From NCBI GenBank assembly GCA_018064365.1, contig JAGHVJ010000006.1:2058-66057 (forward strand): a stretch of DNA of 64,000 bases. The letters are read 5' to 3'. The translations under genes and the position numbers were made by a program. Origin of the DNA: Candidatus Enterousia onthequi (GTDB lineage: Bacteria; Pseudomonadota; Alphaproteobacteria; Rs-D84). Position 1 is the first letter of the stretch. Each line of letters begins with the position of its first letter. Below are positions 35,538 to 37,928 of this stretch, piece after piece. The notes beneath the pieces are model-generated. The model ran no database searches and was not told the DNA's origin. It saw only the letters and a program-made list of their open reading frames with translations.

Positions 35538-35684
35538 ATGAAAAAAATTATACTTGGTTTTTTTGTTGCAATTGCATTGGCTGGTTGTGGCCAGGTTTAT
35601 GATCGTGAACCAGTTGGTGTTGGTTATGATAACAATGAATTGAAATTGAGTCCTTGCGCATGCATTATGGTGTACCAGGCTTAA
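35538..35684 (+). CDS. Small lipoprotein (48 aa). A VirB7-like candidate, based on context only.
   Basis: MKKIILGFFVAIALAGC lipobox. RBS GGAGGA. First gene of the operon with the VirB8-like genes. Confidence 0.45.
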   Translation: MKKIILGFFVAIALAGCGQVYDREPVGVGYDNNELKLSPCACIMVYQA

Positions 35685-35721
35685 TCAACCATTATAAACT
35701 CACCCAGGCTTATCACATATA

Positions 35722-36411
35722 ATGAGATACCCAGACGATTTTAATACACCGGCTTTTCCTGCGGGAAAAAGTGTTGCCATGTCCAGAATTGTGGCTGTTA
35801 TGGTGATGGTATCGTTCGTGCTAATTATGTGTGTTTGTGGTGTTATTGTGTGGGCTAAAAAGACCCAAAATACCAGTCCGTTTTTAATTTCAATAAATCC
35901 AAATGGCGAACGTTGGACATTGGTTGCACATGATAATCATAAAAATGAAATTCCTGCATATTTTGTTTTGCAAGAATCTTTGTTAAACAAATTTGCGCGT
36001 CATTGGTTTTCGATTTCTGATAATGTTTTGGAAAATACGGCAATATGGTCAGATGCGTGTTCACGTGATTCTGATGAATGTCGTTTGGGTAATGGTGGTG
36101 ATACTTGCGCAATTTACTGTGAATCAAATGATAAAGTGTTTGATACTTTTCACAAAAATGTGTTGCCTGTATATGAACAATTGGAAACAAATGAATCTGT
36201 GGTGTGGAACGTGGTAAATGTTGCAGCACGACCTGTTGATTTTCGCAAGATATCGGCAAATGGTGGAATGTGGAAATTAAATGTTTTGGTAAATACGGGT
36301 GTGGAAAATATTGTGTTTTCTGGTTATGCCAACTTGGGACATGACCAAACAGAATATCCAAAAACAATGGGGTATTATATTTCAGATTTTAATATGTTCA
36401 GGATGAATTGA
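35722..36411 (+). CDS. VirB8-like bitopic membrane protein (putative)
   Basis: N-in TM, then a ~180-aa periplasmic domain. The C-terminus ..KTMGYYISDFN resembles VirB8 ..NPLGFQVTSY. Central RHWFSISDN resembles ESYFWSAQDN. Confidence 0.4.
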   Translation: MRYPDDFNTPAFPAGKSVAMSRIVAVMVMVSFVLIMCVCGVIVWAKKTQNTSPFLISINPNGERWTLVAHDNHKNEIPAYFVLQESLLNKFARHWFSISDNVLENTAIWSDACSRDSDECRLGNGGDTCAIYCESNDKVFDTFHKNVLPVYEQLETNESVVWNVVNVAARPVDFRKISANGGMWKLNVLVNTGVENIVFSGYANLGHDQTEYPKTMGYYISDFNMFRMN

Positions 36412-37061
36412 TGCGTGAATATAAATATATCTTGATTGGAATTTGTATGATGGCTGTCGTATTGGGACTGGTGTTTTTTACCGGTGCTATTTATGATGCT
36501 GAAAACAAAAACACAATAGAAACATATTTTTTTGAACCTAATAATAAATCATCTGACCGTATCAGTGCACCTGTTGCACCCCAAGATATACCGCAAAATT
36601 ATCTTCGTGAAAAAATAGTAGAACATTTTGTGTACGAATATTTTTATGTTATCCCAGATGGGGATAATGCTCGTGCTCGAACCCAAGATTTTAAAAATAC
36701 AGATGGAACATGGACACCATTATACGGTATGGCGGCACCTGTTGTGCGCGAACAATGGCAAACCAAGGTTGCACCCGGTATCATGGACTTGGCGGATAAA
36801 TATGGAATGCGCACGGTGGAATTATTGGGGGTCAGTGAATCAGAAAGTGGGCACTTGATTGTTGATTATAAATTAAAAACATGGGATAAACCAAACGATG
36901 TTTTGGCGCGTCCCACAGAAACAACAGGTCGTTTGTTATTGAATATTACAGACCATCCGATTGTTGTTAAACAAACACAAAAGGTTTTGAACTGGTTGCA
37001 AAACGGCACAGATCCCGTGTCGGCATTTTGGTTTCAAATCCAAGATGTTGTGCAGGAATAA
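36408..37061 (+). CDS. VirB8-like bitopic membrane protein (putative second paralog)
   Basis: N-terminal TM. YLREKIVEHFVYEYFYV aligns with the VirB8 'FIREYVLARNE' region of 55174..55947. 4-nt overlap with the upstream gene. Confidence 0.35.
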   Translation: MMREYKYILIGICMMAVVLGLVFFTGAIYDAENKNTIETYFFEPNNKSSDRISAPVAPQDIPQNYLREKIVEHFVYEYFYVIPDGDNARARTQDFKNTDGTWTPLYGMAAPVVREQWQTKVAPGIMDLADKYGMRTVELLGVSESESGHLIVDYKLKTWDKPNDVLARPTETTGRLLLNITDHPIVVKQTQKVLNWLQNGTDPVSAFWFQIQDVVQE

Positions 37062-37073
37062 AAAGAGAATAAA

Positions 37074-37928
37074 ATGTTATTAAAACGTGTATTATTTTTT
37101 GGATTGTTTATATTCATATCGCCACTGTATGTTGAAACGTCTTTGGCGGATGATGGATTCGGTATTATGGATGAAGTGGGCGAAGATGATGAATACGAAA
37201 CAGACGCGTTCACAGATTCAAATAACCCAGATATTGCTTATTCTGATTCTGGGGATGGTGATTTTATCGAAGAATCTGGAAATGTTGGTTTGAACGATGG
37301 TGCTGGTTTGTTAAATGTTGGCGATTTTGATATTGCTGGCATTATGTTGGGTATGACTTTCGAAGATATTTATAATTTATATCATGCGCATAACCATTTA
37401 TATTCACCACGCAAACGCAACAGTTTGGTTTATACGATACCGACTGATTGGAAATATAATTTGGATTATGAATGTCGCCAATCTGGGGTTACACAGCCAA
37501 ATAAATTAGAAAAATGTATTCGCAGTCTGGCACAAAATCGTGGGTTGTTATATGTTTCTGAAATTCATTTAGAACGCGCCAAAACCGGTGAAAAAATAGA
37601 TGTCTTTTTAACCAGTAACGCCACAGATAATGTTGTGTATCGCATAGTGTACACTAATGATATTGAACGGTTAGAGGGTTCTAAACCAAAATTTGCAGAC
37701 CAACGCGACAAACGTCGTTTGGCATTTTGGAAAAATGTTGTTGCAAAATATGGTGCACCTAATTCTGGTGCAGATACATGGATTACATCAACAAATCCAT
37801 ACGACCCAAAAATGACGGTGTATTATGATGCGATAGAATTAAAAAATGCGGGCAAACAGGCGACTGATATTGCTGCATCTGCTGAACAATCCCGTGAAAA
37901 CTTTCGTGCGAAACCGTATGCTTTTTAA
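37074..37928 (+). CDS. Secreted protein with an acidic Asp/Glu-rich N-terminal region
   Basis: Signal peptide ..LYVETSLA. No known motif. Confidence 0.5.
   Translation: MLLKRVLFFGLFIFISPLYVETSLADDGFGIMDEVGEDDEYETDAFTDSNNPDIAYSDSGDGDFIEESGNVGLNDGAGLLNVGDFDIAGIMLGMTFEDIYNLYHAHNHLYSPRKRNSLVYTIPTDWKYNLDYECRQSGVTQPNKLEKCIRSLAQNRGLLYVSEIHLERAKTGEKIDVFLTSNATDNVVYRIVYTNDIERLEGSKPKFADQRDKRRLAFWKNVVAKYGAPNSGADTWITSTNPYDPKMTVYYDAIELKNAGKQATDIAASAEQSRENFRAKPYAF

Follow-up and report, generated by a model that had tools for sequence, protein, structure and literature searches.

A four-gene cassette between kefB and yraN

The analysis concerns a 64,000-nucleotide (nt) stretch, referred to below as the window, from a metagenome-assembled genome of Candidatus Enterousia onthequi, which belongs to the order Rs-D84 of the Alphaproteobacteria. 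Four closely spaced genes lie on the plus strand between kefB, which ends at position 35443, and yraN. They encode a lipoprotein of 48 amino acids (aa), a bitopic protein designated A229, a second bitopic protein designated B217 that is the product of the next open reading frame (ORF), and a secreted protein of 284 aa designated C284. We consider it fairly probable that the first three genes are parts of a single, scattered, P-type type IV secretion system (T4SS) similar to the rvh system, in which the lipoprotein occupies the VirB7 position and A229 and B217 are two divergent VirB8 paralogs. The T4SS membership of the three genes is deduced chiefly from their position in a distant relative, where the same trio sits directly upstream of virB8-virB9-virB10.

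The four ORFs named in a preliminary description of this DNA are all present on the plus strand at the positions given in Table 1. That description also placed them in a tight operon downstream of kefB. The cassette does follow kefB; nonetheless, it is its own transcription unit, because a terminator-like hairpin and the region's best promoter-like site lie between the two. The promoter-like site is located 29 nt 5' of the lipoprotein ATG, and a ribosome-binding site, GGAGG, is found at 35526-35530. The promoter is called solely by its match to the consensus, and sites of this kind were not enriched in comparison with shuffled sequences. At the A229/B217 junction, the ATGA that had been described at 36408 does not exist. 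The sequence there is TTGATG, with the A229 stop codon TGA at 36409-36411, and B217 can start either at TTG 36408 (4-nt overlap) or at ATG 36411 (1-nt overlap, TGATG). The latter is the more likely start, and the resulting 216-aa form matches both the homologs and the NCBI annotation. B217 and C284 are separated by 12 nt. The 1-nt overlap between the C284 stop and the yraN start was seen as described (TAATG, 37926-37930).

The four proteins are identical to MBP9999309-12, all of which are annotated as "hypothetical protein". Relatives were scanned with one genome per species, which yielded 29 loci, all from uncultured gut or rumen Alphaproteobacteria and several from Ca. Enterousia. The order lipoprotein-A229-B217-C284 was kept in every sufficiently long contig among these 29 species genomes, and yraN mostly came next. 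In the most distant group, the mean identity to the window proteins was 82% for the lipoprotein precursor, 51% for C284, 35% for A229, and 29% for B217, and the identity of A229 and B217 in far relatives went down to 25-35%. The cassette genes are real and under selection.

Table 1. Positions of the cassette features, the virB8-virB9-virB10 operon, and the polytopic paralogs in the window.
Feature	Coordinates	Strand	Remarks
Intrinsic-terminator-like hairpin ending kefB	35451..35472	+	9-bp stem, 4 GC pairs, T-rich tail
Sigma-70-like promoter match	35481..35509	+	TTGACC-17-TATACT, 10/12; best of region
Lipoprotein, 48 aa	35538..35684	+	lipobox and LPAM_1
A229, VirB8-like bitopic protein (predicted)	35722..36411	+	predicted fold; PF04335 matches in relatives
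B217, bitopic A229 paralog, putatively VirB8-like	36411..37061 (alternative start 36408)	+	hhalign
C284, secreted orphan	37074..37928	+	signal-peptide-like start, acidic stretch
yraN, UPF0102 endonuclease family	37928..38269	+	overlaps C284 by 1 nt
virB10, 826 aa	51116-53596	-	TrbI; Cys-rich tail
virB9, 505 aa	53632-55149	-	CagX (PF03524) and weak C-terminal SPOR match
virB8	55174-55947	-	PF04335, 27.4 bits vs. cutoff 23.2, E 3.5e-6
Polytopic paralogs	15006-16292, 16289-17785, 17799-19004, 19007-20284	-	
Polytopic paralog	20347-21669	+	

The proteins encoded by the cassette

A229 contains a single strong transmembrane segment at residues 23-41 (Kyte-Doolittle 2.96) and therefore has the bitopic topology of VirB8, in which a short cytoplasmic N-tail and one transmembrane helix precede a periplasmic domain of about 150-180 aa. 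Its cytoplasmic N-terminal tail is invariant (YPDDFNTPAFPAG; YPQRF in distant lineages), and its periplasmic domain contains four cysteines. An AlphaFold2 model based on 29 sequences reached a mean predicted local distance difference test (pLDDT) score of 82. It consists of a helix at residues 15-48, a disordered linker, and a folded domain at residues 79-227, in which helices are packed on a four-stranded antiparallel sheet. The best Foldseek match in the PDB was CagV of Helicobacter pylori (6iqt, E 2.5e-4), at a sequence identity of 10%. The other top matches were three chains of Rickettsia typhi RvhB8-II (4o3v and 7sh3 among them), DotI (3wz4), and the IcmL-like protein lpg0120 (5cnl), and further matches included R64 TraM (3wz3), Brucella VirB8, and Bartonella TrwG. 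Target-normalised TM-scores against T4SS VirB8 homologs ranged from 0.52 to 0.66, with 0.57-0.62 for DotI, lpg0120, and TraM. Judged by the model, the periplasmic fold of A229 is VirB8-like (NTF2-like), as the preliminary description had supposed. Tim44-like and MlaC folds, named there as the possibilities that would speak against VirB8, were not borne out: Tim44 ranked 22nd with a probability of 0.57, and MlaC was absent among the 50 matches listed.

The sequence links between A229 and VirB8 are weak but consistent. The VirB8 family PF04335 was the sole Pfam family matched by members of the A229 family, with E<=0.01 in 19 of the 29. The best of these values, 2.9e-6, is on par with that of the canonical VirB8 of the window (3.5e-6). 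When enriched alignments of the A229 family and of the canonical VirB8 of the lineage were compared by hhalign, 89.4% was obtained (E 2e-6, 151 columns). Earlier hhalign comparisons of A229 and B217 with the window VirB8 were based on thinner alignments and were insignificant; they became informative after distant members and the VirB8 of locus L043, described below, had been added. A sequence-profile search of the PDB with A229 returned nothing meaningful.

B217 also has one transmembrane segment, at residues 7-25. Its comparison with A229 by hhalign gave 70% (E 4e-5) with the first alignments, 96.6% (E 5e-10) with enriched alignments, and 97.4% (E 1.4e-11) after further enrichment. The signal persisted when only the periplasmic parts, without the transmembrane segments, were aligned (90.5%, E 1.3e-6), and a control with reversed B217 gave 0.2%. 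These profile comparisons identify B217 as a paralog of A229. A VirB8-like (NTF2-like) fold, which the preliminary description had proposed for B217 as well, would accordingly be expected from paralogy. The comparison of the B217 family with the VirB8 of the lineage gave 62% (E 8e-5). Neither PF04335 nor any other Pfam family was matched by the 28 members of the B217 family, and the B217 profile had no sequence match in the PDB. Only 124 clusters were returned when the profile was run against 1.84 billion representative proteins, mostly orthologs of 200-240 aa and fragments. At the level of sequence, B217 is thus a lineage-restricted family.

The lipoprotein carries the lipobox LAG/C and matches LPAM_1 of Pfam with 21.8 bits (cutoff 20). 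Its size and lipobox Cys fit VirB7, the precursor of which has about 45-60 aa, and the preliminary description was right in calling it VirB7-sized. The mature peptide of 32 aa (CGQVYDREPVGVGYDNNELKLSPCACIMVYQA) is near-invariant across 26 genomes. Differences amount to 4% at codon positions 1 and 2 and to 44% at position 3, which indicates strong purifying selection on the translated mature lipopeptide. Two known small lipoproteins were considered and rejected. With LptM, only the signal peptide and the lipobox align (NF047847, 20.7 vs. 27.7 bits; PF13627, 14.3 vs. 27.3), and the mature N-terminal region of LptM, CGxKGPLxLP, is not found in the window lipoprotein. With YceK, the match is limited to the lipobox, and a single JGI label "YceK" was judged spurious. 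A variant of the same length (cluster P0322) occurs on 474 contigs, the longest of which (930,420 bp) is probably a near-complete Rs-D84 genome. One NCBI record of this variant is labelled Caudoviricetes sp. and is most likely a mislabelled bacterial sequence. A second mini-lipoprotein, which has 49 aa and belongs to DUF4223 (PF13978, E 4.6e-11), is encoded just 3' of yraN at 38356-38505 (+). It too is very conserved, with 86-91% identity among relatives, and is found behind the cassette in 22 of the 33 loci.

C284 begins with a signal-peptide-like N-terminus, which is followed by a 57-residue stretch (about residues 26-82) with 18 D/E and no K/R and by a conserved alpha/beta domain of about 200 aa that ends with PYAF. 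Its AlphaFold2 model is mixed alpha/beta, with a pLDDT of 71 overall and about 80 in the domain. The 815 homologs are all unnamed. No sequence match was found in the PDB, no Pfam family was matched by 63 members beyond noise, and no significant fold match was found in the PDB (best E 0.42) or among viral predicted structures (BFVD), which agrees with the initial impression of a protein without a recognisable family. The remote VirB9 similarity that had been suggested for it is rejected. Comparison with the window VirB9 by hhalign gave 0.2%, no fold match pointed to VirB9, and the alpha/beta model differs from an all-beta beta-sandwich.

Gene order in relatives and the assignment of the cassette

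The operon virB8-virB9-virB10 (51116..55947, -) contains the sole recognisable T4SS genes of the window and lies 13 kb from the cassette. Its first gene had been described as a bona fide VirB8, and both its Pfam score and its neighbours, the CagX/VirB9 and TrbI/VirB10 genes, agree with this. When metagenomes were scanned with the window VirB8, only one close relative was retrieved. VirB4, VirB11, and VirD4 were not found within the window. No lipoprotein gene is present upstream of the window virB8, where tRNA-Trp (56113-56186) directly adjoins; the operon is thus without its own upstream lipoprotein gene, which supports the placement of the cassette lipoprotein at the VirB7 position.

More informative loci were found by following the most distant members of the B217 family. 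In one lineage with 33% G+C, represented by loci L043/L044 from GCA_964514455.1 and an independent read set, one strand carries, in this order, the genes for the lipoprotein, an A229-like protein, a B217-like protein, VirB8 (PF04335), VirB9, and VirB10, with gaps of 67, 10, and 20 nt before virB8, virB9, and virB10, respectively. Its lipoprotein has 48 aa, is 56% identical to that of the window, and shares the core CGQ.Y...P.G.GY...ELK.SPCAC.MVY. The A229-like protein is recognised by the A229-family hidden Markov model (88.8 bits, E 3e-28) and has the YPQRF tail motif, and the B217-like protein is P0315. Identity to the window proteins is 52% for VirB9, which likewise combines CagX and SPOR, and 37% for VirB10. 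The lipoprotein gene heads only A229-B217 in the window; its ortholog here heads the whole virB8-virB9-virB10 block. This fusion is the decisive reason for assigning the trio to the T4SS, and it upholds the core of the preliminary description, namely that a VirB7-sized lipoprotein and two VirB8-like bitopic proteins belong to T4SS biology. The order corresponds to the canonical virB7-8-9-10 with two VirB8-type genes added after virB7, as a tandem duplication of virB8 would yield. Additionally, virD4 lies divergently 231 bp from the lipoprotein gene of the lipoprotein-A229-B217-C284-yraN cassette in L036 (GCA_009784815.1, 50% G+C) and 1.6 kb upstream of lipoprotein-A229-B217 in L039.

The favoured explanation can be described as follows. 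The lipoprotein would play the part of VirB7: its lipid anchor would sit in the outer membrane, in line with the Gly at +2, and the peptide would contact the VirB9/VirB10 outer-membrane core, possibly via the invariant cysteines of SPCAC. A229 and B217 would be ancient tandem virB8 duplicates, each with one inner-membrane helix and an NTF2-like periplasmic domain. Jointly with the canonical VirB8, or alongside it, they would form hetero-oligomeric periplasmic "arches", a scaffold placed between the VirB9/VirB10 core and the inner-membrane complex. A conserved protein of the cytoplasm, e.g., the VirB4 ATPase, is the probable docking partner of the invariant A229 tail. The ancestral order would have been virB7-A-B-virB8-virB9-virB10, as retained in L043/L044. 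In Rs-D84, including Enterousia, the first three genes would have split off and would now stand 5' of C284-yraN, usually after bamA and, in the window, after kefB.

A number of observations weigh against this assignment. The match of A229 itself to PF04335 covers residues 21-71 only and stays below the gathering score (19.6 bits vs. 23.2, E 9e-4), and the B217 profile retrieved no general VirB8 from the 1.84 billion proteins. The motifs are also imperfect. The C-terminal resemblance of A229 to NPLGFQVTSY that had been claimed stands insofar as YPKTMGYYISDF aligns to the canonical ENPLGFRISDY; the NPXG motif itself is not there, with YPKTMG in its place in A229 and no counterpart in B217. NPXG is the dimer-interface motif before the last VirB8 strand and is degenerate in RvhB8-II (PMC4676284); the A229 motif is a degenerate NPXG of this kind. 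The VirB7 motif P[ILV]NK, which binds the C-terminal domain of VirB9 (PMC2653234), does not occur in the mature lipopeptide of any lineage, in which EPVGVGY is found. A simple VirB7-VirB9 contact does not account for a lipoprotein that is near-frozen while its proposed partners diverge. Furthermore, only one lineage (6 contigs) showed the fused operon, and in 31 Rs-D84-type loci the 8 kb on either side of the cassette are free of T4SS genes. Finally, the cassette directly follows frr-uppS-cdsA-rseP-bamA in 20 of the 29 species genomes, including the most divergent, and also in L041 and L048. Taken alone, this genomic context argues for an envelope function unrelated to secretion.

Such a function is the basis of a rival explanation, in which the lipoprotein, the VirB8-like proteins, and C284 would form a trans-periplasmic complex that is independent of any T4SS and either serves outer-membrane biogenesis or maintenance (BamA) or takes up lipids or metabolites. 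Such a complex would resemble the Mce-associated membrane proteins of mycobacteria, which are VirB8-like. Besides the bamA-type loci and their lack of nearby T4SS genes, this explanation can draw on the presence of bamD (YfiO) and a DUF4223 lipoprotein close to the cassette in L041 and on the conservation of the cassette lipoprotein, which far exceeds that of any T4SS protein of the lineage and suggests an invariant partner. The lineage also lacks lipid biosynthesis (PMC12306168). Nevertheless, genes may stay together without a shared function in very small genomes that rearrange slowly, and the nuclease gene yraN is equally syntenic. The fold matches are T4SS VirB8 proteins rather than MlaC or Tim44, and neither the operon fusion with virB8-virB9-virB10 in L043/L044 nor the virD4 adjacency in L036 and L039 would be expected of a T4SS-independent complex, which we consider unlikely. 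A more speculative reading, to which we give somewhat less credence still, takes one of two forms. Either the trio and C284 have, in Rs-D84, become uncoupled from virB8-10 and act as a stand-alone envelope-spanning scaffold beside bamA, or the whole T4SS, with its three-VirB8 arches and its invariant 32-residue lipopeptide, has been repurposed as a contact or import device. In the latter case, Rs-D84 bacteria, with genomes of <1 Mb and without biosynthesis, could draw lipids or metabolites from partner cells.

The preliminary description had spoken of a "second T4SS-like operon", and a separate machine, either a remnant or a core, could be imagined in which C284 replaces VirB9 and which works independently of virB8-10. 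Three VirB8-like genes are present within 64 kb, the cassette forms a unit of its own that is set off by a preceding terminator and has a separate promoter-like site, and some bacteria possess several T4SSs (PMC4676284). We regard this as very improbable. No paralog of an ATPase, VirB6, VirB9, or VirB10 was seen in the cassette or its flanks at about 40 loci, and the lack of an ATPase, VirB9, or VirB10 paralog in the cassette is the reason why it is probably not a second T4SS. C284 shows no VirB9 similarity and is alpha/beta instead of a beta-sandwich, and the trio in L043/L044 shares its operon with the sole virB8-10 set seen there. The cassette looks instead like a detached piece of one scattered system. 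Within this scattered-system explanation, we lean towards a refinement in which T4SS membership is limited to the lipoprotein, A229, and B217, and C284 and yraN are an unrelated housekeeping pair upstream of which the trio landed. C284 is missing after the B217-like gene in L043/L044 and L039 and lies 330 nt from B217 in L036. It evolves at a housekeeping rate, with its 51% identity in far relatives resembling GrpE and TpiA and contrasting with the 29-35% of A229 and B217, and wherever it adjoins yraN, the two are coupled. However, C284 stands about 10 nt behind B217 on the same strand in all Rs-D84-type loci and is for this reason taken to be co-transcribed with it, and no independent function could be assigned to it from Pfam/NCBIfam, PDB, or fold searches. 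A T4SS role of C284 is unproven, and the protein may be an accessory peculiar to this lineage or a mere neighbour. The yraN gene, which follows C284 at most loci and is displaced by 1-4 kb at several, is not considered part of the machine and is treated as a passenger in the transcription unit.

Known systems and other genes of the window

Among known systems, the rvh T4SS of Rickettsiales is comparable in that a P-type T4SS is scattered in a reduced alphaproteobacterial genome and a canonical VirB8 occurs together with a divergent one. In rvh, VirB8 is duplicated, with one divergent copy without NPXG, and the genes lie in scattered islets (PMC2653234, PMC4676284). The VirB7 candidate RP288 is a tiny lipoprotein directly upstream of virB8b and was recognised by position only (PMC2653234, PMC4676284). 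RvhB8-II is also among the best structural matches of A229. There are differences, however. Three VirB8-like genes are present here, the two extra copies are paralogs of each other and fall below Pfam detection, and they stand apart from virB8-10 (13 kb in the window; usually beside bamA). The lipoprotein is near-invariant and lacks P[ILV]NK, and the host belongs to Rs-D84, not to Rickettsiales. An rvh-type T4SS also comprises an array of VirB6 paralogs and duplicated VirB4 and VirB9. Of the rvh-type traits, scattering and VirB8 multiplication are seen here; the five tandem polytopic paralogs at 15006-21669 resemble a VirB6 array but have no family match.

The order of lipoprotein, VirB8-type protein, VirB9, and VirB10 in L043/L044 resembles that of virB of Agrobacterium tumefaciens and of TraN/TraE/TraO/TraF of pKM101. 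The 48-aa lipoprotein precursor also has the size expected of a canonical VirB7, and the topology and modelled NTF2-like fold are those expected of VirB8. In contrast to the canonical VirB7-10 set, two extra VirB8-like genes lie between the virB7 position and virB8, and the operon is split in the window lineage. NPXG and P[ILV]NK are absent, VirB9 has a SPOR-like C-terminus, and VirB10 has 826 aa and a Cys-rich tail.

Adjacent genes for two paralogous bitopic inner-membrane proteins of VirB8 type, preceded by a lipoprotein gene and followed by the gene of a secreted protein, are also known from Legionella DotI-DotJ (IcmL-IcmM) and R64 TraM. The Dot/Icm gene order is icmN-icmM-icmL-icmK. However, the fused operon encodes P-type VirB9 (CagX) and VirB10 (TrbI) next to them instead of DotH/DotG, DotJ has no periplasmic domain, which both A229 and B217 possess, and C284 matches no Dot/Icm chain in the PDB. 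CagV of H. pylori, the best structural match of A229, is likewise a sequence-divergent VirB8, but no other Cag-specific component was seen here, the sequence identity is only that given above, and the organism represents another lineage.

Rs-D84 comprises abundant uncultured gut and rumen Alphaproteobacteria with genomes of <1 Mb that are presumed to depend on partners (PMC12306168). In that genomic study, the word "secretion" does not appear, and "type IV" is used only for the pili of another lineage (PMC12306168). According to the present analysis, the lineage retains a divergent T4SS, to which three "hypothetical" genes kept in every genome examined probably belong, and it is a candidate machine for partner interaction. 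After Rickettsiales, Rs-D84 would be a second independent lineage in which VirB8 has multiplied and diverged to an extreme degree, here with three copies. Together with the near-frozen 32-residue lipopeptide at the VirB7 position, this makes the stoichiometry and role of the VirB8 "arches" and the function of a VirB7-like lipoprotein testable in a new system. B217, C284, and the lipopeptide are families that current profile libraries miss.

Several further features were noted along the way. In most Rs-D84 genomes (loci L001-L033, L041, L048), the cassette fills the slot after bamA. In many Proteobacteria, this slot is occupied by skp-lpxD-fabZ-lpxA. The lpxD gene of the window is located elsewhere, at 44769-45815, beside yidC and lspA. 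Phage-like genes (lysozyme, head-tail connector, a terminase fragment, ParA-like) are found 3-8 kb 3' of the cassette in L036, at 15189-19735 of that locus, which suggests a prophage or mobile-element remnant near its T4SS islet.

The outer-membrane components encoded in the window have unusual extensions. The CagX+SPOR combination, in which SPOR is peptidoglycan-binding, is unusual for VirB9 and also occurs in the 495-aa VirB9 of L043/L044. The C-terminal ~45 residues of VirB10 are Cys-rich (CEDGTSPDANGCCTGEV...CCPAGSGDCFPP). In L043, this tail corresponds to a separate secreted protein of 111 aa that is encoded just 3' of virB10 at 15219-15554 (47% identity, E 8e-10). Sequence comparison thus indicates that genes for the outer-membrane end of the T4SS have undergone fusion or fission.

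Five adjacent polytopic membrane proteins of 401-498 aa, each with roughly 5-8 predicted transmembrane segments, are encoded at 15006-21669. Paralogy was detected between h401 and h440 (E 5e-11) and between h425 and h428 (E 1e-3), and none of the five matched a Pfam or NCBIfam family. The array is reminiscent of rvh in Rickettsiales, which has five VirB6 copies, but a relation to VirB6 is unproven. Two further paralogs of 735 and 736 aa, encoded at 6895-9102 and 9972-12182 (+), are 27% identical over their N-terminal ~230 aa. Each has an N-terminal hydrophobic segment and no family match, and they are candidate surface proteins or effectors. A 979-aa protein encoded near the cassette of L039 resembles the 736-aa protein (E 6e-15).

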